A stretch of DNA of 64,000 nucleotides, taken from the NCBI GenBank assembly GCA_040905525.1, contig JBBDRJ010000013.1, positions 231,919 through 295,918 on the forward strand. Reading direction: 5' to 3'. Below, piece by piece: positions 43,293-60,010 of the stretch (position 1 is its first letter; each line of letters begins with the position of its first letter). The stretch comes from Actinomycetota bacterium. GTDB taxonomy: Bacteria; Actinomycetota; JAICYB01. The notes beneath the pieces were generated by a model. The model saw nothing but the letters and a program-made list of their open reading frames with translations. It was not told where the DNA came from and ran no database searches. The position numbers were made by a program, and so were the translations under genes.

Positions 43293-43553
43293 GCAATGGC
43301 ACCATCGGAGGGAACGACGGACTGGAATCGTCGTCGAACCGCTCGAACATGTCGCCCTCCTCGTCCCGGCGCGAACGAGTGGCTCGACGAGCCCGGAGGA
43401 AAAACAAAGACCCCTCCCGAGAGGGGTCGGGACTTGCAGCATCGTCCCCGTCGCCGGCTAACGGGCTGCTGGAGACGATCGAGCTAGATATCGACGCCAA
43501 CCGTGCGGTCGTCCGCCTTCGCACGTCGTAGTGCAATATGTTATACAAGTTGC

Positions 43554-43802
43554 ATGACACAGCTCGTGGCCAGGATCCCCGATGAGGTGGCCAGGGCCCT
43601 GGACGATCTCGTCGCGTCGGGTGCCTTCGCTACGCGATCGGACGCGGTCCGCGAGGCCTTGCTGGAATTGCTCGATCGACATCGGCGGGGCGAAACCGCC
43701 CGGCGCATCGTCGAGGGGTATCGGCGACGTCCGCAGAGTGAGGACGAGATCGAGTGGGCCGAGGCAGCCACGGTCGCGATGATCGCCGACGAGCCGTGGT
43801 GA
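43554..43802 (+). CDS. Ribbon-helix-helix type II antitoxin
   Basis: The N-terminal IPDEVARALDDLVASGAFATRSDAVREAL is an RHH fold. GTGA overlap with the downstream toxin. Confidence 0.7.
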   Translation: MTQLVARIPDEVARALDDLVASGAFATRSDAVREALLELLDRHRRGETARRIVEGYRRRPQSEDEIEWAEAATVAMIADEPW

Positions 43803-44107
43803 TTCCGCGCCAGGGGGATGTCTGGTGGGCGGAGGCCGAGAACAAACGTCGTCCGGTCCTCGTCGTCACCCGGAGCGAAGCGATAGGGGTGCTGCGCTGG
43901 ATCGTCGTCGCTCCAGTCACGCGTACGATCCGCGACATCCCGACCGAGGTCAAGCTCGGGCCTGAGGACGGTCTCCGCGATGACTGCGCGGCGACGTTCG
44001 ACAACCTGCAACCCATCGGCCGGGCGTTTCTGACTGAGCGGATCGGCGCTCTTGGGCCGCGACGGGGCGAGATCTGCCGGGCCCTCGTGGCTCTCGCGGA
44101 CTGCTAG
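43799..44107 (+). CDS. MazF/PemK family toxin
   Basis: GTG start. The GDVWWAE...RPVLVVTRS motif is characteristic of PemK/MazF. Confidence 0.75.
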   Translation: MIPRQGDVWWAEAENKRRPVLVVTRSEAIGVLRWIVVAPVTRTIRDIPTEVKLGPEDGLRDDCAATFDNLQPIGRAFLTERIGALGPRRGEICRALVALADC

Positions 44108-47064: not shown

Positions 47065-48984
47065 ATGCGTTCTCAGTGGGGGTGGGCCGGAACCGCTCGA
47101 GAGTTCCTCCAGTTCTCGCGCGACCTCTGGCTTCGCTCCCTCGAGGAGCACTGCGAAGCATTAGCCGCGCAGAGGCCCTCGCAGTCACAGCGCCGCGTCT
47201 GGATCAACGAGCACGAAGCCATGGCCAACGCTCTGCGCACGTGTTGCACGGCCGAGCCCGGCGCCCAGGACTGGGGCGTCGTCTTCGAGTACGAGCTACC
47301 GCTCGAGGGCGGCCGCCGTCCCGACGTCGTCGTTCTCGCCGGCGCAACGATCATCGTCTGCGAGTTCAAGGAGAACCCCCAGCACTTCGCCGCCCACTTC
47401 GATCAGGTCGAGGCCTACGCGCGCGACCTGTCCGAGTACCACGAGGCCAGCCACGGCCGTCGCGTCGTGCCGATCTTGGTGTTCGTCGGCACGGAGCCGG
47501 TGGCGGGCACCCGCGACGGCACGATCCTCACCGACGCTGCGGGGCTCGATCAGTACCTCATGGCCAACGCTTCAACGGGGACGATCGATCTCGACGCTTG
47601 GCTCGACTCCCCCTATGTTCCGTTGCCGACGTTGGTCGAGGCGGCCCGGAGCATCTTCCGGGAGGAGCCGCTGCCGCACGTGAAGCGCGCCGTCGACGCC
47701 GACATCCCCGGGACGCTCGAGCTCATCGATCGGCTCATCTCCGACACCGAGGGAGAGGACGGACGCGCGCTGGTCTTCGTGGCCGGCGTTCCCGGATCGG
47801 GGAAGACGCTCCTCGGCCTGCGCGTGGTGTACGAGCGTCCGGTCGCGCACGGCCGGGCCATCTTCTTGTCCGGCAACGGTCCGCTGGTGAAGGTGCTGCA
47901 GGACGCGCTGTCCGGTTCGCGCGGCCGCGGCAACGGACGATCAGCCGGACGGGCCTTCGTGAGGGATCTCCATCAGTTCATCAAGACCTACGGGATGGGG
48001 ACGAAGGTGCCGCGGGAGCACGTGATCGTGTTCGACGAGGCGCAGCGCGCGTGGGACCGCGGGTACATGGCGGCCAAGCGCGGCGTGACGAAGTCGGAGC
48101 CGGATCTCCTCGTTGAAGCGGGCGAACGAGTGGAGCGCTGGGCGGTGCTCCTCGGCCTGGTCGGCGAGGGTCAGGAGATCCACTCGGGCGAGGAAGGCGG
48201 GATCGGACAGTGGCGGGAGGCGGCGAAGTCCTCGCCCGCGGCGACGTGGCGGGTGTTCTGTCCTCCGCGGCTGGCCGATGAGTTCCACGGGCTCGAGGTG
48301 CAGACGCACGAGCGACTCGATCTGGATGTATCGCTGCGCAGCCGGCGTTTGGAGCAGCATCACAACTGGGTGAGTTTGCTGCTACAGGGGAGCCTTTCGC
48401 TGGCCGCACGGCAGGCCGCGCGAGTGTCGGCGACCGACGGGTGGGCGATGTATCTGACGCGCGACCTGGAGGAGGCGAAGGCGTACGTCCGGGCGCGTTA
48501 CGCCGAAGAGCCGGAGAAGCGGTTCGGGCTGATGGCGTCGTCCCACGCGCGCAACCTGCCGAAGTACGGCGTGCTGAATTCGTTCCTGGACACGAGGAAG
48601 GTGCGCGAGGCGCGCTGGTTCAACGCTCCGGCTGAAGATCCGATGTCGTCGAACGCGCTCGAGGTGCCGATGACGGAGTTCGGGTGCCAGGGTCTCGAGG
48701 TGGACATGCCGGTGGTGTGCTGGGGAAGCGACTACACCTGGGACGGCCGGGAGTGGTCGGCGAAGGCGGTCCGGCGGAAGTACCCGCTGACCGATCCGAT
48801 GCAGATCGTGAGGAACGCGTATCGCGTGTTGCTTACACGCGGCCGGGACGGATTCGTGGTCTTCATGCCGCCGGAGTCGGAGCTCGACACCACCGAACAC
48901 GCACTTCTGGCGGCGGGCGTGCGTCCACTGCCGGAGCCGATGGAGTTGGGGGCCGAAGTCGTGCTGGCGACAAATGGGGGCTGA
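47065..48984 (+). CDS. DUF2075-type ATPase (Schlafen group III / Nhi-like) with N-terminal PD-(D/E)xK/NERD-like nuclease module
   Basis: N-terminal VVFEYELPLEGGRRPDVVVL...IIVCEFK (D...ExK). Walker A VFVAGVPGSGKT, Walker B VIVFDEAQRAWD, and C-terminal YRVLLTRGRDGFVVFMP, typical of DUF2075. Confidence 0.75.
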   Translation: MRSQWGWAGTAREFLQFSRDLWLRSLEEHCEALAAQRPSQSQRRVWINEHEAMANALRTCCTAEPGAQDWGVVFEYELPLEGGRRPDVVVLAGATIIVCEFKENPQHFAAHFDQVEAYARDLSEYHEASHGRRVVPILVFVGTEPVAGTRDGTILTDAAGLDQYLMANASTGTIDLDAWLDSPYVPLPTLVEAARSIFREEPLPHVKRAVDADIPGTLELIDRLISDTEGEDGRALVFVAGVPGSGKTLLGLRVVYERPVAHGRAIFLSGNGPLVKVLQDALSGSRGRGNGRSAGRAFVRDLHQFIKTYGMGTKVPREHVIVFDEAQRAWDRGYMAAKRGVTKSEPDLLVEAGERVERWAVLLGLVGEGQEIHSGEEGGIGQWREAAKSSPAATWRVFCPPRLADEFHGLEVQTHERLDLDVSLRSRRLEQHHNWVSLLLQGSLSLAARQAARVSATDGWAMYLTRDLEEAKAYVRARYAEEPEKRFGLMASSHARNLPKYGVLNSFLDTRKVREARWFNAPAEDPMSSNALEVPMTEFGCQGLEVDMPVVCWGSDYTWDGREWSAKAVRRKYPLTDPMQIVRNAYRVLLTRGRDGFVVFMPPESELDTTEHALLAAGVRPLPEPMELGAEVVLATNGG

Positions 48985-49903
48985 TTGGTTGAAGGCGTAT
49001 GTAGCCGTCACGGACGGCGATTGGTATCGGTACTTGAGCCGGTTACCTGATCTCGACGAGGTCAACTTCTGGCAACCGAGTCCGAGCGGCGCGTTTCGAG
49101 CGGTCCAACCCGGAGAGTTGTTCCTGTTCAAGCTGCACCATCCCGAGAATTACATCGTTGGCGGTGGCTTCTTCGCCGACTACAGTGTGCTTCCGGCGAG
49201 TCTGACTTGGGAGTCGTTTGGCGAGAAGAACGGGGCAAGCAGCCTTGAAGATATGAAGTTACGGATCCGGAAGTATCGTCGATCCTCTGACCTAACAGAG
49301 GACCCTGATGTAGGTTGCATCGTCTTAGTACAGCCCTTCTTCTTCGATCGCAGAGATTGGATCAGTGCTCCGCTAAGTTTTGCGAAGAACATTGTTCGGG
49401 GGAAGACGTACGATTTCGAATCGCTCGAAGGACGCGCGCTGTGGCGAGACCTCGAGGCTCGACTCTTAGCCGTTCGTCAAGACGAATGGCAGGAGGTCGC
49501 GGCGCTCGGTGCTTTCGCTATGGTCCGTCGCAGGCTGGGCCAGGGCGCCTTCCGCGTCCTCGTAACGGACACCTATCGCCGCCAGTGTGCAATCTCCGGC
49601 GAGAAGGTGTTGCCGGTTCTTCAAGCCGCGCACATCCAACCGGTTGCCAGCGGTGGTTTGCACCGCATCGAGAACGGCCTTCTGCTTCGCTCCGATATCC
49701 ACACGCTCTTCGATCGTGGGTACGTGACGGTGACTCCGCGTTACGAAGTCAGGGTGAGCAATCGACTCAAGAAGGACTTTGCTGACGGCGAGTACTACGG
49801 CCAGTTCGATGGCCAAGGGATTTGGCTGCCAACCGCTGAGCAGGAACGGCCAGACGCGCAGCTTCTCGAGTGGCACTCCGACACAGTTTTCCGTGCGTCA
49901 TAG
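48974..49903 (+). CDS. HNH endonuclease (HNH_2-like) with ~190-aa N-terminal recognition-like domain
   Basis: C-terminal CAISGEKVLPVLQAAHIQPVASGGLHRIENGLLLRSDIHTLFDRGY (HNH). Overlaps the DUF2075 gene by 11 bp. Confidence 0.75.
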   Translation: MGADWLKAYVAVTDGDWYRYLSRLPDLDEVNFWQPSPSGAFRAVQPGELFLFKLHHPENYIVGGGFFADYSVLPASLTWESFGEKNGASSLEDMKLRIRKYRRSSDLTEDPDVGCIVLVQPFFFDRRDWISAPLSFAKNIVRGKTYDFESLEGRALWRDLEARLLAVRQDEWQEVAALGAFAMVRRRLGQGAFRVLVTDTYRRQCAISGEKVLPVLQAAHIQPVASGGLHRIENGLLLRSDIHTLFDRGYVTVTPRYEVRVSNRLKKDFADGEYYGQFDGQGIWLPTAEQERPDAQLLEWHSDTVFRAS

Positions 49904-49914
49904 GGTCGGGTAGG

Positions 49915-50625
49915 TCAGCCGTTCGCTTGGACCGCAAGCCGCTCGTCTAATTTGGTGCGAACGAGGTTTCGCTTGTCGTCGTCGAGTGCTTTTGGTAATT
50001 GAAGAAGCCAGTTCACGAGATCTGGACCTTGGACAATCGGAACGCCATTGTGAATCTGGTCACTGGTTGCGATCGCACTTGACCCTTGTCCCCAAACCAC
50101 AACGATCGGACGAACCTTGACGTCCACACCTGAGTGCTTGAGTAGCAGCCCGACGCTGCGTGCATTGGCGGCCGCTTGACCCGCATAGGCCGTCTGGATC
50201 CTCAGAACCTGGCCGTTCGTTCGCGGTCGATCGTTGATCCACTTGACCTCCAGAGCGAGAACGCCTCCCGGCCCCACAACGATTGCGTCTACGTCTCCAC
50301 GCGTGAGCAAGATGCCTTGGACGAGATTCCACCCGTGTTTGCGCAGCTTCTTGAGCTCGTCGTGGGTGGCCTCCTCGCCCCAAGCGCCGAATCTGTGATT
50401 GATGGAGCCCGATCCGAACATGATCGCGTTGAAGACGGCCCATGCAGCGCCGACGGTCAAGGCGCCAAGCGCGAACATTCGGACGGAAGCATTTGAGTTG
50501 AGCCAGAGCAAGCTTCCGGGCACTGCCAGTACCGCGAGGATCATGCTAAGCCTTGGGAGCTCACGCCTAACGAAGGCTCGTTCGCGCTTTTGCAGCTCGG
50601 CTCGTGGATACGTCTTGACTTTCAT
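49915..50625 (-). CDS. NERD domain nuclease-related membrane protein
   Basis: N-terminal TM. GDVDAIVVGPGGVLALEVKW is the NERD core. Confidence 0.7.
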   Translation of the reverse strand: MKVKTYPRAELQKRERAFVRRELPRLSMILAVLAVPGSLLWLNSNASVRMFALGALTVGAAWAVFNAIMFGSGSINHRFGAWGEEATHDELKKLRKHGWNLVQGILLTRGDVDAIVVGPGGVLALEVKWINDRPRTNGQVLRIQTAYAGQAAANARSVGLLLKHSGVDVKVRPIVVVWGQGSSAIATSDQIHNGVPIVQGPDLVNWLLQLPKALDDDKRNLVRTKLDERLAVQANG

Positions 50626-50760: not shown

Positions 50761-51177
50761 CTACTTGAGAGCTAGCTCTCGGAAGCTAGTCCTCGTGGCG
50801 ATGAATATCCGAGGGCCGGTTAGCGCCGTAACCCGCTCGATGTCAGACCATCGAGCGACGGCGATGCCAAGCTCCCCCCAAGTAGTTGGATCGCGACGAA
50901 CGTCGAGTACCACCAGACGAAGAGCGTTCTCTTTAACTGCGTTTATCTCCACCGACTTCTTCGTGATCTGCCGGTCGCGCGAGATAACGATCCAATGTCG
51001 AGCGGCGACCTCTGGGATCCATTCCGGATCCTTGGCTTGCCGGCGTATCGGACACTTCGGACGGCCGCGGCTTGGATCTCCGGGATCTCCCGCGTATGTG
51101 GTGTCGTAACGCGCCTGAACTAGACTCTTACCGAGAGCTATTAGATCCGCGTCGATGTAATAGCGGATGTCTGCCAT
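50761..51177 (-). CDS. DUF5615-like PIN-fold putative toxin
   Basis: MADIRYYIDADL...WIVISRDRQI pattern, adjacent to the DUF433 protein. Confidence 0.5.
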   Translation of the reverse strand: MADIRYYIDADLIALGKSLVQARYDTTYAGDPGDPSRGRPKCPIRRQAKDPEWIPEVAARHWIVISRDRQITKKSVEINAVKENALRLVVLDVRRDPTTWGELGIAVARWSDIERVTALTGPRIFIATRTSFRELALK

Positions 51178-51186
51178 CGACCGACA

Positions 51187-51897
51187 TCACGCCGCAGTGA
51201 GAATGTGGGGCCAGTCGGTTGCTTCGTAGGCGAGAGCGGCGATCACATCGTCTTTCGTCAAACCGTATGCATCGGCCAACGCCTCAACGGGCTCTCCCGC
51301 ATCGGCCTTCTCCTTAAGGACGGAAGTCGAAACGCCCCCGACGGCTGGAACTCCAAAACGGATCTCGGGATCAATCACGACCGGTGAGGATTTGCCAAGA
51401 GGACGAATCCGAGCGGCGATCGCCGCGGGGCCTCGTCCGTCAAATTCCACGCGCGCCAAGAAGTGCTCAGCGATCGGCAGGAAGACTTCTTGGCCGGTCG
51501 TCGGCTCGAGAAGGATGGGCATAAGCCCGGGCTCGCCGCGGATGTGCTCACTTGCTTCGAGCAAGAGCCTCCGCCCCGGCCCAACCCAAGGCCGAGCTGT
51601 TGCAAGAGGGTAGGGGACCTTGAGCTCGGTTCTGAGCTTTGTCATGAACTCTCTTAGGCGCCACAGCTTCACCTGTAGCGCCTTTCGGTATCCGGCGAGA
51701 TAGCCGGCTTCGACCACCTCACCCCAGGTCAATACAGCCGAGCCGGTTGGTTCCGCCCGCAAGACCGGGGGATAGGTCTTCCCTCTGCGCTCGCCTCCTT
51801 CGAGCCACCAGCGCAGGGTGGACGGAGGCACGCGGAGAACGCCGGCGGCGACGCTCACCTCGTACAGCTCTCGATCCAGGGCGGATGGCGCGGCCAT
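51187..51897 (-). CDS. DUF433 domain protein with N-terminal HTH-like extension (putative antitoxin/regulator)
   Basis: The C-terminal VIDPEIRFGVPAVGGVSTSVLKEKADAGEPVEALADAYGLTKDDVIAALAYE matches DUF433. The N-terminus has the HTH-like segment LRVPPSTLRWW. Confidence 0.6.
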   Translation of the reverse strand: MAAPSALDRELYEVSVAAGVLRVPPSTLRWWLEGGERRGKTYPPVLRAEPTGSAVLTWGEVVEAGYLAGYRKALQVKLWRLREFMTKLRTELKVPYPLATARPWVGPGRRLLLEASEHIRGEPGLMPILLEPTTGQEVFLPIAEHFLARVEFDGRGPAAIAARIRPLGKSSPVVIDPEIRFGVPAVGGVSTSVLKEKADAGEPVEALADAYGLTKDDVIAALAYEATDWPHILTAA

Positions 51898-51935: not shown

Positions 51936-52763
51936 TCAGCTCTGTCTCCTCTTCTTGTTCGCGACGATGTTCGTCAGGAACCGGGCCGAAGAAGCGGCCG
52001 ACTCCACATCGCCGGCGCTGAGGTCGTCCATGTCGACGTCGGTCACAGCGACCCCCTTCGCGCACGCGTAGTCCATGGCCGACTCCTTGTGCCGCTGGTC
52101 GCGGAGCTCGGTTCGCTGCAAGTAGTAGTGGCTGATCATGTGGAAGACCTCGCCGTGGCCGTACGAGAAGAGAACCGCCACTGGCGCTTCGCCGTACTTG
52201 CCCTCGAGCTCCTTCGAGCGCACGAGCACCTTCACGCGCTCGGCGTTCAGGACGCGGATCGGGTAGGACGAACCCTCGAGCCACCACAGCGGCTCCTCGC
52301 CAGGGTCGATCACGCCCTGGAGGAACGGGTTGTCCGGCTCGGCGATCTCGATGCGCACGACGTCGTCCGAGGTCGGACGGTCATTATACGCGACCGTGTT
52401 CTGGAAGGCCGGCTCGATCACGTTGCGCAGAGCCCAGTCGGTGGTGAACAGGCTCCCGCCGTCGGCGACGAAGTCGCGGATCTGAACGATCGCGCCGGGG
52501 GAGACGTTGCCCGGGCAGTTGATGACGACTAGCTGCTCGAGACGCAGGACGATCGATTCGACCTGCGATGCCTGGACGCGCGTGTGCGGCATCTCGAGGG
52601 CGTCGAGGACGAGGTGGATGTGGTCGTAGGTGCCGTCCACGACGACGATGTCCGAGGCCTGGACGGTCCGGACGGCCTCGGCGTCCAAGGGGGCCTCGTT
52701 GGCCAGCCGTTCCCGGGCAATCTGGGCGCCGGCCCGGTAGGCGCGTGTTCGCTTCTCATCCAT
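51936..52763 (-). CDS. Hypothetical protein, possibly ThuA/class I glutamine amidotransferase-like fold
   Basis: IVVVDGTYDHIHL...LVVINCPGN...FVADGGSLFTTDWA pattern. Strong RBS gaggaggga before ATG 52763. Confidence 0.35.
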   Translation of the reverse strand: MDEKRTRAYRAGAQIARERLANEAPLDAEAVRTVQASDIVVVDGTYDHIHLVLDALEMPHTRVQASQVESIVLRLEQLVVINCPGNVSPGAIVQIRDFVADGGSLFTTDWALRNVIEPAFQNTVAYNDRPTSDDVVRIEIAEPDNPFLQGVIDPGEEPLWWLEGSSYPIRVLNAERVKVLVRSKELEGKYGEAPVAVLFSYGHGEVFHMISHYYLQRTELRDQRHKESAMDYACAKGVAVTDVDMDDLSAGDVESAASSARFLTNIVANKKRRQS

Positions 52764-52788
52764 GACTCCCTCCTCGCATCGTACGTAT

Positions 52789-52817
52789 GCTAATAGCATA
52801 ATACTAACGCTAATAGC
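52789..52817. promoter_or_regulatory. Two copies of GCTAATAGC (near-palindromic) 20 bp apart in the divergent promoter region
   Basis: AT-rich 100-bp intergenic region between the ThuA-like gene (-) and the XRE regulator (+). Repeats at 52789-52797 and 52809-52817. Confidence 0.3.
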
Positions 52818-52864: not shown

Positions 52865-53362
52865 ATGGTTGAGCGAAGCCGCAGGTCAGAGCGTCCGCCG
52901 GGCCCCGACGCGCACGCCGCCGCGCTGGGTCACGCGATCAAGGTTCTCCGGACCGATCAGGGGATGGACCGGGCCGAGCTGGCCGAGGCGAGCGGGCTGT
53001 CGTACCCCTACCTGTCCGAGATCGAGAACGGGAAGAAGCGTCCGTCGTCGCGAGCTCTCGAGTCGCTGGCCGAGGCGCTGGGCCTGCGGGCGCACGAGCT
53101 CCTGGCGGCCGCGGACTCCCGTGTCGAGATGGTCGAGGGGGCCGAGGTGGATGCCGCCTACCTTATGGCCGAAGCTCCGGCCCCGGGCTCACCTCGCCGG
53201 CGGAGCTGGTTCAGGGACGAACCGATGAGGGTTGCTTCATTGCGGGCTTCGGCTCCGGGCCACACCGCGGATCTTGCGCGGGAGCTGGGAGAACTGCTGA
53301 CGAGGCTGACGGCCGAGGACGCCGATAGAGTGCTCGATCTCGCACGGCGACTGGCGCGCTGA
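52865..53362 (+). CDS. XRE-family helix-turn-helix transcriptional regulator
   Basis: LGHAIKVLRTDQGMDRAELAEASGLSYPYLSEIENGKKRPSSRALESLAEALGL is an HTH_XRE domain. Confidence 0.8.
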   Translation: MVERSRRSERPPGPDAHAAALGHAIKVLRTDQGMDRAELAEASGLSYPYLSEIENGKKRPSSRALESLAEALGLRAHELLAAADSRVEMVEGAEVDAAYLMAEAPAPGSPRRRSWFRDEPMRVASLRASAPGHTADLARELGELLTRLTAEDADRVLDLARRLAR

Positions 53363-53452
53363 AGCTTGCAGAGGCAGGAATGTCACACTTGATCATCACG
53401 CTCGATTGAGGGGGTTCTGACTCGAGCAGCGAATGCGGGAGACAATTGATCA

Positions 53453-54355
53453 ATGGGAACTAGGGTTCGAGCGGGACTTCGTGGGGCTTCGGCTCGCTTG
53501 GGAGTAGTAGAAGCGGCGGACGTCGCGCGGCTCATCCTGGATTTGGAGCGGGCAATGCAACAGTCCGCGCTCGCAGTCCTCGGGCGGCCGGACGCCCGAG
53601 GCCGACGTGGCCGAACGATCGAACAGTCCGCGAGGTGGCGCCTCCGGGCGATCTCCGAGGGCAGTGTTGTGGTGGAAATGGAGCTTCCGGAGAGGGTCGC
53701 AGAAGCGGACGCGCTCGAACTTGACGTACAGAACCTCGCGGAGGAAGCAATCCACAAAGCGTTGCGAGTCGTGACCAACGAGGACGCCACTCCTGAAGTG
53801 GCTGCCTCCCTTGCCGAATTGTCTAACGACCTCGATATCGGCGAGCGCTACGAAGGGCTCTGGATTGAGGTCGATGGTCCGAAGCCACGCCGTGCCGAGA
53901 TTGATTCGGGCGTGCGTGAACGCCTGCGGGAGTTAGCGACGACGCGTGCTGATCGCAATGCCAAGCGTGACAAGGTGACCGGAACTTTGTATGAGGCCGA
54001 CTTCGAGAAGAACACCGCTCATCTCCGTATTCCTGAGGGCAAGTCCGTAAGGGTGTCTTTTCGAGATGCGATGGCGGACGACATCCAGATGGCGCTTCGT
54101 CATCCAGCAGAACTCGAGGGCGAGATCGAATATGACCCTCGGACGTCGATGGCGGTCGCTGTCGAGCTTCGCTCAGTTCGGCGAGCCGATCAGCTCATGA
54201 TTGGGCTTGACACAGGTGAGTTCTGGCGCAACCCGACGATTGAAGAACTCAGGCAGGCGCACGGTGTGGCGCCGATTGAAGATCTCGACTCCTTGCGCAT
54301 TTCAGACGCCTCGGATGAGGAGCTGGAGGCCTTCCTCGAAGCGCTGAGCGGGTGA
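53453..54355 (+). CDS. Hypothetical 300-aa protein translationally coupled to the PIN protein
   Basis: Clean ORF with no recognisable family. GTGA overlap with the PIN gene. Confidence 0.5.
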   Translation: MGTRVRAGLRGASARLGVVEAADVARLILDLERAMQQSALAVLGRPDARGRRGRTIEQSARWRLRAISEGSVVVEMELPERVAEADALELDVQNLAEEAIHKALRVVTNEDATPEVAASLAELSNDLDIGERYEGLWIEVDGPKPRRAEIDSGVRERLRELATTRADRNAKRDKVTGTLYEADFEKNTAHLRIPEGKSVRVSFRDAMADDIQMALRHPAELEGEIEYDPRTSMAVAVELRSVRRADQLMIGLDTGEFWRNPTIEELRQAHGVAPIEDLDSLRISDASDEELEAFLEALSG

Positions 54356-54780
54356 ACGCATCTGAAGTTCGCCCAGGTCCCCTTCTATTGGACACCGACG
54401 TCGTCTCATTTCTCATCTCTGGTAAAGGTGAGCACGCACGGTTCGGAGAGCTCATCCGCGGGCATCTTCTGGTGGTGTCGTTCGCGACGGTGGCCGAATT
54501 GCTTGTCGGTGCGGCCATCGCGGGGTGGGGCGAGCGGAAGATCAGCCAACTCGAAGACAGTCTGAAAGCGTATGTGGTCGTTCCCGGAACTGAGGCAGTG
54601 GCGCGAGCGTGGGCGAGGCTCTCTGCCAGATTCAGGGATCAGGTGAGCGAGAACGACCTCTGGATCGCTGCCTCGTCGCTGGCTCAAGTCGATCCGCCGC
54701 CAATCGTGACGAACAATCTCCGGCACTTCCGACCGATCGCCGACGAGTTTGCCTTGGAGCTCGTCCACCCCGATTTGTAG
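54352..54780 (+). CDS. PIN domain (VapC-like) nuclease
   Basis: LLLDTDVVSFLI...ENDLWIAASSLA... acidic residues in PIN topology. 142 aa. Confidence 0.75.
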   Translation: MNASEVRPGPLLLDTDVVSFLISGKGEHARFGELIRGHLLVVSFATVAELLVGAAIAGWGERKISQLEDSLKAYVVVPGTEAVARAWARLSARFRDQVSENDLWIAASSLAQVDPPPIVTNNLRHFRPIADEFALELVHPDL

Positions 54781-54844
54781 GCCCCAGAAGTGGGGCCGTT
54801 GACGGTGTAGGTGGCCCGGTCATACGGTGCTCGCGGAGGGCTTA

Positions 54845-57800
54845 ATGAACGTCTTTGAGTTGCGGAAGCGTCTCATCAATGACTATTCGTCGTACGTCCG
54901 CAGCTTCATCAATATCCGCGATGAGCGAATCCGCCAGACGGTCGACCGCGACCTCGATGCGGGACTACTCTGGCCCGAGCCTCGTATCGGTCTGAACCCC
55001 TCGTTCGAAACGGGTGGCTGGATCGACGAACTCGTCGATTCCGGGCTCCTGCTCGAGGAGTGTCGCCGCATCTTCCGCATCCGCAAGACCGCCGAAGGTG
55101 CTGAAGGCGAACCAATGCGACTGCACCGCCATCAGGTCGATGCGATCAACGCCGCGAAGACGGGCAAGAACTACGTCCTCACGACGGGGACCGGTTCGGG
55201 CAAGAGCCTCGCGTACATCGTCCCGATCGTGGACCACGTCCTTCGCGCGGGTAGCGGTCGCGGCATAAAAGCGATCGTCGTGTATCCGATGAACGCACTG
55301 GCCAACAGCCAGGCCGGCGAGCTCACGAAGTTCCTCAGCTTCGGCTACCCGGATGGGAGGGGTCCGGTCACCTTCCGGAAGTACACGGGCCAGGAGTCCG
55401 ACGAGGAGCGCAACGAGATCATCGCGTCACCGCCAGACATCCTCTTGACGAACTACGTGATGCTCGAGCTGATCCTCACGCGCGTGAAGGAGAAGGGACT
55501 CATCCTCGCGGCTCGTGGCTTGCGGTTCCTTGTTCTGGATGAGCTCCACACGTACCGAGGCAGGCAGGGCGCGGATGTAGCACTGCTTGTCCGCCGGACG
55601 CGCGAAGCGTGCGAGGCACGAGAGCTCCAATGCGTCGGGACGTCCGCGACGCTCGCAACGCAGGGCTCCTTCCCGGAGCAGCGCGAAGAGATCGCGCGCG
55701 TCGCTTCGTTGCTCTTCGGTTCCGTAGTCCCCGACGAGAACGTGATCGGTGAGACCCTCAGGCGAGAGACGGGCGGCATCCCGAACGCAGAGCAACTGAC
55801 GACGCGGCTCGGCTCCCAAGCCGATCCGCCAGCTGACTACGACGGGTTCGTCGCCGATCCGCTGTCGTCGTGGATCGAGACGACGTTCGGCATCGAAGAG
55901 CGTGAAGGGCGCTTGGTCCGAACTCCTCCACGCGCGGTCGGCGGTCCCGGAGGCGCCGCCGAGCAGCTCAGCACGTTAACTGAAGTCGGCGCGGAGACGT
56001 GCCAGACCGCGATCGAGCGCCAGCTCCTCGCCGGGTACGGCGCGGAGAACCCCGACACCCGGTTCCCGGTGTTCGCCTTCCGGCTCCACCAGTTCATCAG
56101 CCGTGGCGACACCGCGTACGCGACGATCGAGCCAGAGGACGAGCGCTACATCACGACGCAACCACAACAGTTCGTTCCCGGCGATCGCAGCAAGCGCCTC
56201 TTCCCACTGGTCTTCTGTCGCGAGTGCGGTCAGGAGTACTACTCGGGACAACTCGCACAGCGCGAGGGCGCACCGGTTCTGGAGCAGCGCGATCCCGAGG
56301 AACGGATCGCGACCGAGGAGGAGGTCCCAGGCTACCTGTACTTCAACACCGCTTCGCCGTGGTCCGAGACCGACGAATCACGCGTCCCTGAGGACTGGAT
56401 CGAGGAGCGTCCGGACGGCAAGCGCATCCGTCTCGACCGACGCAAGTGGCTCCCCAAGCCTCTTGAGGTCGATCCGCTCGGGCACATCGACCGAGGCGGG
56501 CTACAAGGCCACTTCATCGAAGCGCCGTTCAGGTTCTGCTTGACGTGTGGTGTCACGTACGGTGGGAGGCTCAGACAGGACTTCACCAAGGTCGGGATGC
56601 TCGGCTCGGAAGGTCGAAGTACGGCGACGACGATCCTCAGCCAATCGGTCGTCCGGACGCTCCGGGAGATGGTCGAGGGCGCTCCCGAGAACGAGATCCA
56701 GAACGTCACACCGAAACTGCTTTCTTTCACCGACAACCGACAGGACGCGGCTCTTCAGGCCGGACACTTCAACGACTTTGTCGATGTGGGGCTTCTCCGG
56801 TCCGCGCTGTACAGAGCGGTACTCGCTGCCGGAACCCCGGGCCTCACACACGACGTGCTCACGCAGCGCGTCTTCGACGAGCTCGCACTTCCGTTCGAGA
56901 ACTATGCGGCCAATCCCGCGGCCGAGTTCAAAGCCCGGACCGACACCGAGCGCGCGCTGCGCGACGTCCTCGGCTACCGCTTGTACCTCGACCTTCGGCG
57001 GGGATGGCGCATCAGCTCGCCGAACCTGGAGCAGTGCGGGCTGCTCGAGGTCGCCTACGAATCGCTCGACGAGGTCTGCGAGGCGGAACGCGTCTGGAAC
57101 GACTGCCACGACGCGCTAGTGGGTGCGACCGCAGAGAGGCGGAAGCAAGTGTCGCGCACCCTTCTGGACCACATGCGCCGCGAGCTCGCGATCAAGGTCG
57201 ACTACCTGGGTGCCGACTTCCAGGAGCGCTTGCGTCAGACGTCGAGCCAACGGCTCATCTCCCCATGGGCGCTCGACGATCAAGAGGAGCCGGAGCACGC
57301 CGCGGTCATGCTGCCGCGCGCGCGGCGGCCCGACGACTACCGCGGCTGGAGCTACCTCTCGCCTCGCAGCGGGTTCGGCATCTACCTACGCCGCGAGCTC
57401 GGGTTCAAAGGTCTGGCGGACACCGAGGTCGTCACGAAGCAGCTCCTCGCCGCGCTGGAGCGTGGAGGGCTCGTCGAGAAGGTTCTCGAGACGAAGGACG
57501 ACGGTCCTGATGGCTACCAGATCCCGGCCTCAGCGTTCGTCTGGACGGCAGGCGACGGCACGCGAGCCTTCCATGACCCGATCCGTGTTCCGCATCCTTC
57601 GAAGGAAGGCGTTCGACCGAACCCGTTCTTCGTGGCCTTCTACAAGACGATCGCCGCGCAGGGTCGAGGCTTGCGAGCAGGTGAGCACACCGCCGCCGTG
57701 CCCTACGACAAGCGCATCGAGCGCGAGGAAGCGTTCAGGCAAGCACGCCTCCCCGTTCTGTTCTGCTCGCCGACGATGGAGCTCGGCGTCGACATCGCCG

Positions 57801-60010
57801 ACCTGAACATCGTCAACATGCGGAACGTCCCGCCGACTCCGGCCAACTACGCTCAGCGGTCAGGCCGCGCGGGACGGAGCGGCCAACCGGCGCTCGTGTT
57901 CACCTACTGCTCGGCCGGGAGTCCCCACGACCAGTACTTCTTCCGCCACCAGCAGGAGATGGTCTCCGGACAGGTAGCGCCGCCGCGGATCGACCTCACG
58001 AACGAGGACCTGATCCGTTCCCACGTTCATGCGATCTGGCTCACCGCAGCTGGGATGAGCCTCGGTGGATCGCTCAAGGACGTACTCGAGCTGTCGGGCG
58101 AGCCGCCGACGCTCCGCTTGCTCGACTACATCCAGGCAGATCTCTCGAAGCCGGAAGCCCGCGCGGCCGGCAGGGACAGATCCGCTCGCGTGCTCGCCGA
58201 CGTCGAGTCGCTGTTAGCGGGGTCAGACTGGTGGACCCCCGAGTGGTTGGACGACGTACTGAATGCGATGCCGCAATCGTTCGAGGCGGCGTGCGATCGG
58301 TGGCGCAGCCTATACAGCGCGGCCCGGAATCAAGCCGAGCTCCAGCACAAGATCATCATCGACCACTCTCGACAACCCGCCGACAAGCGCCAGGCGGAAC
58401 GGCTTCGCCGAGAGGCGGTCGCGCAGATGGATCTCCTCACCGCTGACACGGGCGACGCGCTCTTCCAATCCGACTTCTACAGCTACCGGTACTTCGCGAG
58501 CGAGGGCTTCCTGCCCGGCTACAGCTTCCCGCGGCTCCCGCTATCAGCGTTCGTGCCCGGCCGGCGTGGCACCCGTGGCACAGACGAGTTCCTCAACCGC
58601 CCTCGTTTCCTCGCCATCAGTGAGTTCGGCCCGCGCAACATCATCTATTACGAAGGTTCGAGGTTCGTAATCAACAAGGTGATCCTCCCGGTCGGAACGG
58701 AGGTCGAGGGGAGTGATCAACCCGTCCTCACGCGTTCGGTGAAGCAGTGCGACTCCTGCGGATACCTCCATCCTTTGGAGGGAGACGTCGGCCCGGATCT
58801 CTGTGAGGGATGCGGCGAGCCCCTCAACGCCGCGATGGACCACCTCTTCCGTCTGCAGAATGTCGCCACGAAACGCCGAGATCGCATCAACAGCGACGAG
58901 GAAGAGCGCACACGCCACGGTTACGACCTGCGTACGGGCCTCCGCTTCGCCCGCAAAGACGGGAGGACGCTGAAGCGGACGGCCTCGGTGCAGGCCGGCG
59001 ACACGGAGATCGGTCGCCTCGAGTACGGCCACACAGCAACGCTCTGGCGGATCAACCTGGGCTGGCGTCGCCGGGCCAACAAGCACGAGCACGGGTTCGT
59101 GCTCGACATGGAGCGCGGTTTCTGGGCGAGACGACAGGACGACCCTGTCAACGACGATCCCGACGACCCAATGAGCGCGAGGACGATGCGCGTGATCCCG
59201 TTCGTCGAGGATCGGAAGAACTGTCTCACCCTGGAGCTCGGCGATCGCGCCTCGGCCGAGCTTCTTTCATCGCTCCAGGCCGCGTTGAAGAACGCGATCA
59301 CGGTGACCTATCAACTGGAGGACCACGAGTTGGCCGCCGAGCCTTTGCCGTCGCCGCAGGATCGGCGTCGACTGCTCATCTACGAGGCATCGGAGGGCGG
59401 GGCCGGCGTTCTCCGCAGACTCGTCGAAGACCCGGGCGCACTCGGCGTCGTCGCGAAGCGAGCTCTGGAGCTCTGCCACTACGACCCAGAAACCTTCGAA
59501 GACCGAGGACGCGCGCCGGGCGCAACGGAGGCTTGCGAAGCGGCTTGCTACGACTGCCTGATGAGCTATATGAACCAACCGGAGCACCGGCTCCTCGACC
59601 GCAAGCTCGTGAAGGACCTGCTCGTGAATCTCGCGGGCGCACGCATCATGACGTCGCCTGTACAGATCGGTCGTGGCGAGCACCTCGACCGACTCAAGCG
59701 CGTCGCAGCATCGGAGCTTGAGCGGCGCTGGCTCGACTTCATCGACGGAGCCGGGCACACCCTTCCCGATCGGGCGGGCACGCTCCTCGAAGCGGCCGGG
59801 ACGAGGCCCGACTTCCTGTACGACAGCGACTTCGCGGCGATCTACATCGACGGCCCGCCGCACGACTTCCCCGATCGGCAGGTACGCGACCGTGAGAAAC
59901 ACGCACGACTCGAGGACCTCGGCTACACCGTGATCCGTTTCGCCGCGGATGCGCAGTGGGCCGAGCTCATCGGCCGCTATCCGTGGGTGTTTGGCAAGAG
60001 GAACGGATGA
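54845..60010 (+). CDS. Giant DExH-box helicase fused to DUF1998-like module and C-terminal DUF559/Vsr-like nuclease domain (DrmA+DrmB-like or DruE-like)
   Basis: Helicase motifs I TGTGSGKSLAYIVPIV, II FLVLDELHTYRG, VI ANYAQRSGRAGRSG. DUF1998-like region YSYRYFASEGFLPGYSFPRLP plus a zinc ribbon CDSCGYLHP...CEGCGEP. C-terminal AIYIDGPPHDF...HARLEDLGYTVIRF. RBS ggaggg before ATG 54845 (alternative GTG at 54827). Confidence 0.8.
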   Translation: MNVFELRKRLINDYSSYVRSFINIRDERIRQTVDRDLDAGLLWPEPRIGLNPSFETGGWIDELVDSGLLLEECRRIFRIRKTAEGAEGEPMRLHRHQVDAINAAKTGKNYVLTTGTGSGKSLAYIVPIVDHVLRAGSGRGIKAIVVYPMNALANSQAGELTKFLSFGYPDGRGPVTFRKYTGQESDEERNEIIASPPDILLTNYVMLELILTRVKEKGLILAARGLRFLVLDELHTYRGRQGADVALLVRRTREACEARELQCVGTSATLATQGSFPEQREEIARVASLLFGSVVPDENVIGETLRRETGGIPNAEQLTTRLGSQADPPADYDGFVADPLSSWIETTFGIEEREGRLVRTPPRAVGGPGGAAEQLSTLTEVGAETCQTAIERQLLAGYGAENPDTRFPVFAFRLHQFISRGDTAYATIEPEDERYITTQPQQFVPGDRSKRLFPLVFCRECGQEYYSGQLAQREGAPVLEQRDPEERIATEEEVPGYLYFNTASPWSETDESRVPEDWIEERPDGKRIRLDRRKWLPKPLEVDPLGHIDRGGLQGHFIEAPFRFCLTCGVTYGGRLRQDFTKVGMLGSEGRSTATTILSQSVVRTLREMVEGAPENEIQNVTPKLLSFTDNRQDAALQAGHFNDFVDVGLLRSALYRAVLAAGTPGLTHDVLTQRVFDELALPFENYAANPAAEFKARTDTERALRDVLGYRLYLDLRRGWRISSPNLEQCGLLEVAYESLDEVCEAERVWNDCHDALVGATAERRKQVSRTLLDHMRRELAIKVDYLGADFQERLRQTSSQRLISPWALDDQEEPEHAAVMLPRARRPDDYRGWSYLSPRSGFGIYLRRELGFKGLADTEVVTKQLLAALERGGLVEKVLETKDDGPDGYQIPASAFVWTAGDGTRAFHDPIRVPHPSKEGVRPNPFFVAFYKTIAAQGRGLRAGEHTAAVPYDKRIEREEAFRQARLPVLFCSPTMELGVDIADLNIVNMRNVPPTPANYAQRSGRAGRSGQPALVFTYCSAGSPHDQYFFRHQQEMVSGQVAPPRIDLTNEDLIRSHVHAIWLTAAGMSLGGSLKDVLELSGEPPTLRLLDYIQADLSKPEARAAGRDRSARVLADVESLLAGSDWWTPEWLDDVLNAMPQSFEAACDRWRSLYSAARNQAELQHKIIIDHSRQPADKRQAERLRREAVAQMDLLTADTGDALFQSDFYSYRYFASEGFLPGYSFPRLPLSAFVPGRRGTRGTDEFLNRPRFLAISEFGPRNIIYYEGSRFVINKVILPVGTEVEGSDQPVLTRSVKQCDSCGYLHPLEGDVGPDLCEGCGEPLNAAMDHLFRLQNVATKRRDRINSDEEERTRHGYDLRTGLRFARKDGRTLKRTASVQAGDTEIGRLEYGHTATLWRINLGWRRRANKHEHGFVLDMERGFWARRQDDPVNDDPDDPMSARTMRVIPFVEDRKNCLTLELGDRASAELLSSLQAALKNAITVTYQLEDHELAAEPLPSPQDRRRLLIYEASEGGAGVLRRLVEDPGALGVVAKRALELCHYDPETFEDRGRAPGATEACEAACYDCLMSYMNQPEHRLLDRKLVKDLLVNLAGARIMTSPVQIGRGEHLDRLKRVAASELERRWLDFIDGAGHTLPDRAGTLLEAAGTRPDFLYDSDFAAIYIDGPPHDFPDRQVRDREKHARLEDLGYTVIRFAADAQWAELIGRYPWVFGKRNG

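Follow-up and report, generated by a model that had tools for sequence, protein, structure and literature searches.

The closest described relatives of the locus considered here are two kinds of nuclease that each work as single genes. Nhi of S. epidermidis (SERP2475; bioRxiv 776245; Bari 2022) and the Nhi-like proteins (Millman 2022) place an N-terminal PD-(D/E)xK nuclease and a DUF2075 helicase of the superfamily 1B (SF1B) type in one chain, and both act as single-gene defenses (bioRxiv 776245; 10.1101/2022.05.11.491447). VcaM4I and TspA15I are Type IV enzymes in which an EVE reader precedes an HNH nuclease (PMC7897488, PMC6765204), and PUA-HNH enzymes restrict T4gt on their own (PMC6765204). 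Here, we describe a 64,000-nucleotide stretch of an Actinomycetota genome (the window; GenBank assembly GCA_040905525.1, contig JBBDRJ010000013.1, positions 231,919 to 295,918 of the forward strand) in which one gene of each kind lies directly beside the other: a DUF2075 nuclease-helicase of 639 amino acids (aa), followed on the same strand by an HNH endonuclease of 309 aa with a PUA-like N-terminal domain. We favor, with a probability of about one half, the reading that these are two autonomous, co-transcribed anti-phage nuclease genes from recurrently linked families, possibly complementary on modified phage DNA.

The upstream protein is assigned over residues 234-602 to Pfam PF09848 (SLFN-g3_helicase, formerly DUF2075; E-value 3.9e-62). 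Its full-length homologs number at least in the thousands, at 52-80% identity, and an alignment of 39 homologs spanning that range leaves the Walker A (G-PG-GKT), Walker B (FDEAQRAWD) and C-terminal Y-RVL-TRGR motifs invariant. Within the N-terminal 230 residues of the same alignment, E75, D87, E100-x-K102 and Q114-xxx-Y118 are all invariant, and they are still so in a more divergent set of 29 sequences. The series D...ExK...QxxxY is the motif set typical of RecB/HsdR-type PD-(D/E)xK nucleases. In an AlphaFold2 (AF2) model of the protein (predicted local distance difference test score, pLDDT, 82.6), these residues sit on an alpha-beta-beta-beta-alpha-beta core. Two profile comparisons point the same way: a sub-threshold Pfam HSDR_N match (E-value 0.0037), and an hhalign alignment to the NERD protein encoded further along the window, in which the catalytic motifs coincide (E-value 4.4e-4, probability 34%). 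Sequence and profile searches of the PDB with the N-terminal domain returned nothing significant, noise only, and for this reason we infer the PD-(D/E)xK fold from the conserved motifs and the model. The initial annotation of the locus, made from the sequence alone, had described three open reading frames (ORFs) and proposed a PD-(D/E)xK/NERD-like domain joined to a DUF2075 helicase in the first; all three ORFs are present where it placed them, as are the motifs quoted from the 639-aa protein (RRPDVVVLA, VCEFK, GVPGSGKT, VIVFDEAQR and YRVLLTRGRDGFVVF), and the proposed domain pair holds up.

That annotation also likened the protein to Schlafen group III and Nhi-like nuclease-helicases, and here the outcome is divided. 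The domain order is that of Nhi, which suggests, by analogy, a shared working logic, and the helicase is of the SLFN type. The closest PDB folds to the AF2 model in Foldseek are human SLFN11 (7zel; E-value 8.6e-11) and then SLFN14 (9uie), followed by the SF1B helicases RecD, coronavirus nsp13, Dna2, Upf1, RecD2 and Pif1, with HsdR lower. Homology to human Schlafen group III (SLFN11/SLFN14) thus lies in the helicase domain (PF09848; 7zel, 9uie), whereas a PD-(D/E)xK, DNA-nuclease-type N-terminus replaces the Slfn/AlbA_2 RNase core. When the full-length protein and its first 232 residues were each compared with Pfam, no AlbA_2/Slfn domain was detected, only sub-threshold HSDR_N and Tox-REase-9 matches, and because the RNase core is missing, the Schlafen likeness is confined to the helicase; the protein is not a bacterial Schlafen as defined in PMC13056530. 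Nor does it belong to Nhi by sequence. The two belong to different sequence families, and the PADLOC models for Nhi (PDLC02372) and AbiO gave no match at an E-value of 0.01 or below. The PADLOC scan, which the initial annotation had recommended, instead returned a single full-length match, to the candidate PDC-S41 (model PDLC05014; E-value 3.1e-139, 463 bits, protein residues 7-612 against model positions 6-634 of 657). This full-length hidden Markov model (HMM) match places the protein in PDC-S41 (Payne et al. 2024, 10.1101/2024.01.29.577857), of which our literature search found no mention. The PDC-S41 candidate is a single gene defined by its embedding in BREX, DISARM or Type I restriction-modification (RM) loci, whereas the gene in the window stands beside an HNH gene in an island of toxin-antitoxin and Dpd-type character.

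For the downstream gene, the initial annotation named an HNH_2-type endonuclease with a long N-terminal domain, and this is what Pfam recovers: an HNH_2 match at residues 205-253 (E-value 2e-11), preceded by a domain of about 185 aa. A homology search collected 7982 proteins from many phyla; the best 120 of these are about 305 aa long and share 57-65% identity over 97-98% of the query. Among 41 sequences of the family, H220, N234, D241, H243 and D247 are invariant, together with an EVNFWQP motif and an aromatic cluster in the N-terminal domain. The catalytic His/Asn/His residues are intact and align to those of VcaM4I, whose structure (6yex) was the sole sequence match in a phmmer search of the PDB, at an E-value of 6.7e-7 and over the HNH part. 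An NCBIfam match to PT-DNA_restrict is likewise confined to the HNH part and falls below its cut-off. The AF2 model (pLDDT 87.2) extends the resemblance to the whole chain, with VcaM4I as the best Foldseek match (E-value 1e-8) and the SRA-HNH enzyme TagI (6ghs) also recovered (E-value 2e-4). NCBI's own annotation shortens the gene to 216 aa, removing half of the N-terminal domain, a model we judge truncated because the homologs conserve that domain in its entirety.

Compared on its own, the N-terminal domain superposes best on ASCH-type proteins (TMt, a template modeling score, 0.60-0.65). Its Foldseek matches comprise AF2351 (2kku; TMt 0.64), ZmASCH (5y6b; 0.62-0.65), PUA proteins and the N-terminal domain of McrB from S. 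marinus (SmaMcrB; 6n0s). No Pfam or PDB sequence profile recognizes it, and nothing in its sequence links it to EVE, ASCH, SRA or YTH domains; because the fold matches while the profiles do not, we count it, as modeled, as a PUA-superfamily domain that has so far lacked annotation. The earlier proposal of a modified-DNA reader therefore stands at the level of fold and finds no counterpart in sequence or profile comparisons. The same holds relative to VcaM4I and TspA15I, which the protein resembles in length, in its reader-then-HNH order and in having no adjoining methyltransferase: its reader has no sequence similarity to the EVE domain. Compared by description only, ScoA3V (Sco5330), a nicking enzyme with a distant PUA domain and an HNH nuclease that is stimulated by N6-methyladenine (6mA; PMC6765204), offers a further parallel, both proteins being actinobacterial with a PUA-like domain visible only by structure. 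ScoA3V homologs are reported in Actinomycetales only, whereas the family described here spans many phyla.

A search of 1.84 billion proteins found the reader domain in 2637 representative clusters. One such protein (P0298, 934 aa) carries a PUA-like domain 53% identical to that of the window, fused not to HNH but to a KAP-family P-loop nucleoside triphosphatase (NTPase) with predicted membrane segments, an occurrence that suits a portable sensor. Around the gene pair, no methyltransferase Pfam family was found among called genes within ±10 kb, and a crude test for the (D/N/S)PP(Y/F/W) motif found none in ORFs >200 aa at 37001-60000. With no cognate methyltransferase present, we read the HNH protein as a Type IV-like enzyme, as had been suggested initially, and as far as architecture and modeled fold go, this reading has support.

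The two genes meet at a tight junction. The HNH frame as listed begins at ATG 48974 and overlaps the upstream gene, which ends in TGA (48982-48984), by 11 nucleotides, but 40 homologs start at the sequence MKAYVAVTD, which corresponds to TTG 48989, 4 nucleotides past the upstream stop and preceded there by a GGGGG run. The true start is thus likely, from this comparison, to be the TTG, giving a protein of 304 aa and a short gap in place of the overlap. Either start implies tight coupling, and the two genes are almost certainly co-transcribed. Scans for promoters and terminators gave counts at or below shuffle expectation.

How far this adjacency extends beyond the window was surveyed from both sides: in 80 loci from 80 species genomes, bacterial and archaeal, centered on DUF2075 homologs of 38-57% identity, and in 80 metagenome loci centered on PUA-HNH homologs, 41 of them at least 5 kb long, with neighbors found by HMMs. 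Seen from the PUA-HNH side, a DUF2075 nuclease-helicase is present in 17/80 loci, and in 13/41 of the longer ones, nearly always no more than one or two genes away. Only MazG-like genes (20 loci) are commoner neighbors; a second HNH_2 paralog with another N-terminal domain (11), SauUSI-like genes (9) and HIT genes (7) follow, and HsdM (5) and McrC-like genes (3) are rarer. Gene order varies, with HNH first, DUF2075 first, HNH-MazG-DUF2075, convergent and divergent arrangements all represented. Among the closest relatives of the DUF2075 protein (77-79% identity), DUF2075 is followed by PUA-HNH in three of four loci (the window, L084 and L086), while the fourth (L087) has other genes downstream. 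The two families are genuinely linked, well above the level seen for other island genes, but the association is not obligate, and its orientation is variable.

By sequence, the DUF2075 proteins adjoining PUA-HNH genes form two groups with the same nuclease motifs, and two layouts recur. The first is PUA-HNH followed by a DUF2075 protein of PDC-S41 type (L095, L101, L111, L165); that of L101 matches the PDC-S41 model at an E-value of 1e-269. The second runs SauUSI-like, PUA-HNH, MazG-like, DUF2075 and sometimes HIT (L122, L126, L131, L140, L142). Its DUF2075 proteins keep the nuclease motifs EYELP...D...ELK...QxxxY, its SauUSI-like genes, which encode a phospholipase D-like (PLD) nuclease, a helicase and DUF3427, match PADLOC mREase_IV (E-value 1e-259), and its MazG-like genes encode nucleoside triphosphate (NTP) pyrophosphatases of PF12643, which suggests a theme joining modified DNA with the modified dNTP pool. 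More distant DUF2075 neighbors of PUA-HNH gave only partial matches to Nhi and AbiO. In the survey centered on DUF2075, other reader-HNH_2 genes also abut DUF2075 in three of the roughly 6 loci that have an HNH_2 gene, namely L036, L056 (a DUF3427-HNH protein) and L075; those of L036 and L056 had at one point been taken for fusions to DUF2075, a notion we rejected because the ORFs are separate adjacent genes. This type of adjacency has been seen independently by Lutz et al. 2019, who found DUF3427-DUF3883 enzymes beside DUF2075 NTPases and proposed that the two are coupled (PMC6765204).

Several individual loci are worth recording in their own right. The second HNH_2 protein found in tandem with PUA-HNH in 11 of 80 loci (among them L098, L100, L105, L112, L115, L123, L130, L144 and L162) is about 305-330 aa long with a different, unannotated N-terminal domain, so that the tandem genes look like a series of Type IV enzymes that differ in their readers. 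In Salinimicrobium catena (L056, 6724-10723), a PLD-like gene and a NUDIX hydrolase gene lie directly upstream of DUF2075 and a DUF3427-HNH_2 fusion directly downstream, with the DUF2075 gene apparently truncated or frameshifted at its 3' end; NUDIX genes also lie downstream of DUF2075 in two further loci. In L012 (5703-9863), the stretch just upstream of an intact DUF2075 gene carries, on the other strand, a MazG-like gene and a second DUF2075 paralog with a frameshift. Finally, a 60%-identical DUF2075 homolog (L085, 1-17020) sits amid a Type III RM pair, a 1640-aa SACS/NOV_C protein, MazG, ARPP-1 and REase-ARP, a clear defense island around a member of the family.

Our preferred reading has to be set against a body of evidence that weighs on the other side. 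PDC-S41 belongs to a set of 145 untested candidates (10.1101/2024.01.29.577857), and the reader domain is recognized by fold only (TM about 0.6). From the DUF2075 side, an HNH_2 gene of any kind appears in only about 6 of 80 loci, so the two-gene unit is not an operon conserved across the DUF2075 family; the nearest neighbors of DUF2075 homologs in the 80 species genomes are mostly ordinary genes, and no PADLOC family was matched by more than 3 of 136 neighbors. At the gene junction, GC content at third codon positions (GC3) drops from 0.86 to 0.67, which suggests that the two genes were acquired separately. The linkage itself could reflect mere co-residence in islands devoted to restricting modified DNA. 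A rival reading makes the locus a coincidence, in which unrelated defense genes, the NERD gene and toxin-antitoxin modules share nothing but a hotspot in a variable island. This would fit the compositional mosaic of the region, the heterogeneity of DUF2075 neighbors, the rarity of the pairing when counted from the DUF2075 side and the finding of each family without the other on plasmids and in regions rich in integrases or insertion sequences (IS). Viral contigs seldom carry either family (3 and 5 loci) and in no case both. A census of 56 genes downstream of DUF2075 likewise found no conserved partner, counting three HNH_2 genes (the window's included), two NUDIX genes and one MazG gene, the others being heterogeneous. 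What tells against coincidence is the view from the other family, since DUF2075 is among the two commonest neighbors of PUA-HNH and far above HsdM or McrC-like genes, together with the recurrence of the pairing across different DUF2075 subfamilies and different readers and the 4-nucleotide spacing, which implies co-transcription. We consider coincidence somewhat improbable.

At the other extreme, the two proteins might form an obligate, two-component, ATP-dependent Type IV system, akin to a split SauUSI or McrBC, in which the PUA-HNH protein would detect modified DNA and bring in or switch on the DUF2075 protein, neither being effective alone. SauUSI supplies the precedent, a Type IV enzyme uniting a PLD nuclease, a superfamily 2 helicase and a DUF3427 reader in a single chain; the pair in the window shares with it the combination of nuclease, NTP-driven motor and (predicted) modified-base reader, although divided over two proteins and built from PD-(D/E)xK and HNH nucleases, a superfamily 1 (SF1) motor and a PUA-like reader. 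The tight junction, the recurrence of the adjacency across DUF2075 subfamilies and reader types, the presence of SauUSI-like genes in the same neighborhoods as the HNH family and the coupling proposed by Lutz et al. 2019 (PMC6765204) would all suit such a system. An obligate partnership sits poorly, however, with the roughly 74 of 80 DUF2075 loci that have no HNH_2 gene, the 28 of 41 long PUA-HNH loci that have no DUF2075 and the convergent and divergent orientations. Frameshifts have also struck the two genes separately: in L084, the helicase gene is frameshifted and the HNH gene intact, and in L086, the reverse. The top 150 of the 2637 reader clusters contain no fusion of the PUA-like domain to DUF2075, only that to a KAP NTPase, and the sharp GC3 difference between the two genes is a further objection. 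The characterized relatives of each gene act alone, which is why two autonomous nucleases are favored; we consider an obligate system distinctly improbable.

If the two are autonomous nucleases, their modes of action can be sketched from those relatives. By analogy with Nhi, the 639-aa enzyme would load onto phage DNA, either invading or replicating, and degrade it while moving along it at the expense of ATP. The PUA-like-HNH enzyme, by analogy with VcaM4I, TspA15I and TagI, would capture a flipped-out modified base in its aromatic pocket and make a nick or cut close to it. Together, they may form complementary layers against phage DNA with modified bases, and the nicks or ends left by the HNH enzyme could be natural entry points for the nuclease-helicase; anti-phage activity, modification dependence and any such hand-off are all putative. 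A broader conception can be entertained, in which DUF2075 nuclease-helicases and stand-alone reader-nucleases (PUA-like-HNH, DUF3427-HNH and DUF3427-DUF3883) would constitute a modular, ATP-dependent restriction of modified DNA, the reader-nuclease licensing the SF1 enzyme against hypermodified phage DNA within a wider, undescribed neighborhood (SauUSI-like, PUA-HNH, MazG-like NTP pyrophosphatase, DUF2075 and HIT) that would strike modified DNA as well as the pool of modified dNTPs. We regard this as speculative and rather improbable.

The surroundings of the pair are a defense and toxin-antitoxin island, whose units are listed with the features of the two genes in the table below. The 300-aa protein that follows the HTH (helix-turn-helix) gene shows a weak PADLOC match to PDC-M32A (E-value 7e-8). 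Further downstream, the best PADLOC match of the 1727-aa helicase is DruE (E-value 3e-91), ahead of weaker DpdJ, DrmA and BrxH matches, and the 951-aa protein matches DpdE over its full length (E-value 1e-257); the two may belong to a Dpd-like (7-deazaguanine) or Druantia-like system. About 2 kb past the window, the contig ends. The 287-aa ORF on the opposite strand is host-like in composition (GC3 0.89) and matched nothing in Pfam, NCBIfam or PADLOC, and a tRNA search across the window found none, so that no tRNA marks an island border.

This setting bears on a last alternative, that neither gene serves defense, the DUF2075 protein being a repair or recombination nuclease-helicase (RecB/AddB-like) and the HNH protein an orphan Type II-like or homing endonuclease. 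The fold of the 639-aa protein does resemble RecD, Dna2 and Upf1, HNH_2 also takes in the Type II enzymes AlwI and HphI (PMC5714182), and many DUF2075 neighbors are ordinary genes. Yet the DUF2075 family has a patchy distribution, with homologs of 38-57% identity scattered over archaea and bacterial phyla and no conserved operon, the protein matches PDC-S41, toxin-antitoxin modules, DpdE and DruE-like genes lie close by, and PF09848 appears on published lists of defense Pfam families (PMC10121019). For the HNH gene, the lack of a nearby methyltransferase and an architecture that fits Type IV enzymes argue in the same direction. A non-defense role thus seems highly improbable, and we infer that the activity of both genes is directed against phage.

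Features of the gene pair, its neighbors in the window and one recurrent layout in surveyed loci
Feature	Coordinates	Strand	Basis
PDC-S41-family nuclease-helicase, Nhi-type architecture, 639 aa	47065..48984	+	PADLOC PDLC05014, PF09848, AF2/Foldseek
Predicted N-terminal PD-(D/E)xK (NERD/HsdR-N-like) nuclease domain	47065..47760	+	invariant motifs, AF2 secondary structure, weak profiles
Nuclease motif residue E75	47287-47289	+	
Nuclease motif residue D87	47323-47325	+	
Nuclease motif E100-F-K102	47362-47370	+	
Nuclease motif Q114xxxY118	47404-47418	+	
DUF2075/SLFN-group-3 SF1 helicase core	47764..48870	+	Pfam residues 234-602, invariant motifs
Walker A GVPGSGKT	within 47779-47811	+	
Walker B VFDEAQR	within 48022-48051	+	
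C-terminal motif YRVLLTRGRDG	within 48814-48864	+	
PUA-like reader + HNH_2 endonuclease, predicted Type IV/modification-dependent, 309 aa (304 from TTG 48989)	48974..49903	+	Pfam, Foldseek
N-terminal PUA-superfamily (ASCH/EVE-like) beta-barrel, as modeled	48989..49510	+	Foldseek domain matches
Reader-domain invariant EVNFWQP motif (aromatic cluster W17, F32, W33, W79, F82, Y101)	within 49055-49081	+	
HNH_2 beta-beta-alpha-metal nuclease domain	49520..49903	+	Pfam HNH_2, invariant residues
HNH residue H220	within 49619-49639	+	
HNH residue N234	within 49667-49690	+	
HNH residue H243	within 49688-49723	+	
Membrane-anchored NERD protein, 236 aa; module membership unsupported	49915..50625	-	Pfam NERD, hydrophobic segments
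RHH-PemK toxin-antitoxin-like unit	43503-44107		
PIN_10-DUF433 toxin-antitoxin-like unit	50761-51897		
287-aa ORF, between PIN_10-DUF433 pair and HTH gene	51936-52799	-	GC3 0.89, host-like
HTH gene, then 300-aa protein, then PIN gene	52865-54780		toxin-antitoxin-like
DEAD/Helicase_C/MZB helicase (1727 aa) + DpdE homolog (951 aa), 55-nucleotide overlap	54827-62811		
SauUSI-like, PUA-HNH, MazG-like, DUF2075 layout in surveyed loci	L122 1885-8131; L126 3-4947; L131 5649-9692; L140 966-7907; L142 2551-9086		

Base composition gives a mixed picture of the island. The region had been described as visibly poorer in GC than its flanks, and between 44 and 52 kb, GC is indeed 0.61 against 0.656 for the whole window, with low GC3 in the HNH (0.67), NERD (0.66) and PIN_10 (0.61) genes. 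The DUF2075 gene is the part for which the description fails, being host-like (GC 0.68, GC3 0.86), and we accordingly drop low GC as an argument for the locus.

The NERD protein was initially grouped with the pair as a third component, and here description and grouping part ways. It is a NERD protein (PF08378; E-value 7.9e-10, 39.7 bits against a cut-off of 22.1) with two hydrophobic stretches near the N-terminus (residues 23-44 and 50-71) and the motif GDVD...LEVK, and its gene is convergent to the HNH gene, 11 nucleotides from the HNH stop; the NCBI annotation shortens it to 209 aa, dropping most of the first hydrophobic segment. No comparative link ties it to the pair. Its only four detected homologs have neither DUF2075 nor HNH in their contexts, one lying with an RHH-PIN toxin-antitoxin pair and Uma2 and another with a serine recombinase and Mrr, and a tblastn search for the protein across the 160 surveyed loci found none. 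In L084, a NERD-domain gene also precedes DUF2075, but the two NERD proteins are dissimilar in sequence. We therefore rejected NERD as a module member: we take the protein for an unrelated island neighbor, and DUF2075, HNH and NERD do not form one conserved module.

The initial description of the locus is thus largely borne out, and its interpretation in part. Both genes of the pair belong to catalogued kinds, PDC-S41 with Nhi-type architecture on the one hand and PUA-HNH Type IV-like enzymes on the other, and their pairing is the expected kind of content for a defense island. If confirmed, the locus would be a testable example of candidate PDC-S41, and it would add a very large, phylum-spanning family of PUA-like-HNH proteins, with thousands of homologs and a reader invisible to current Pfam models. 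The quantified linkage between the families is the most useful product of this analysis, as it makes the coupling hypothesis of Lutz et al. directly testable. Its recurrence points to a specific idea, raised by Lutz et al. in 2019, namely that helicase-nucleases of the SLFN type work together with endonucleases that depend on DNA modification; this idea bears on the immune role of the helicase domain shared with human SLFN11.

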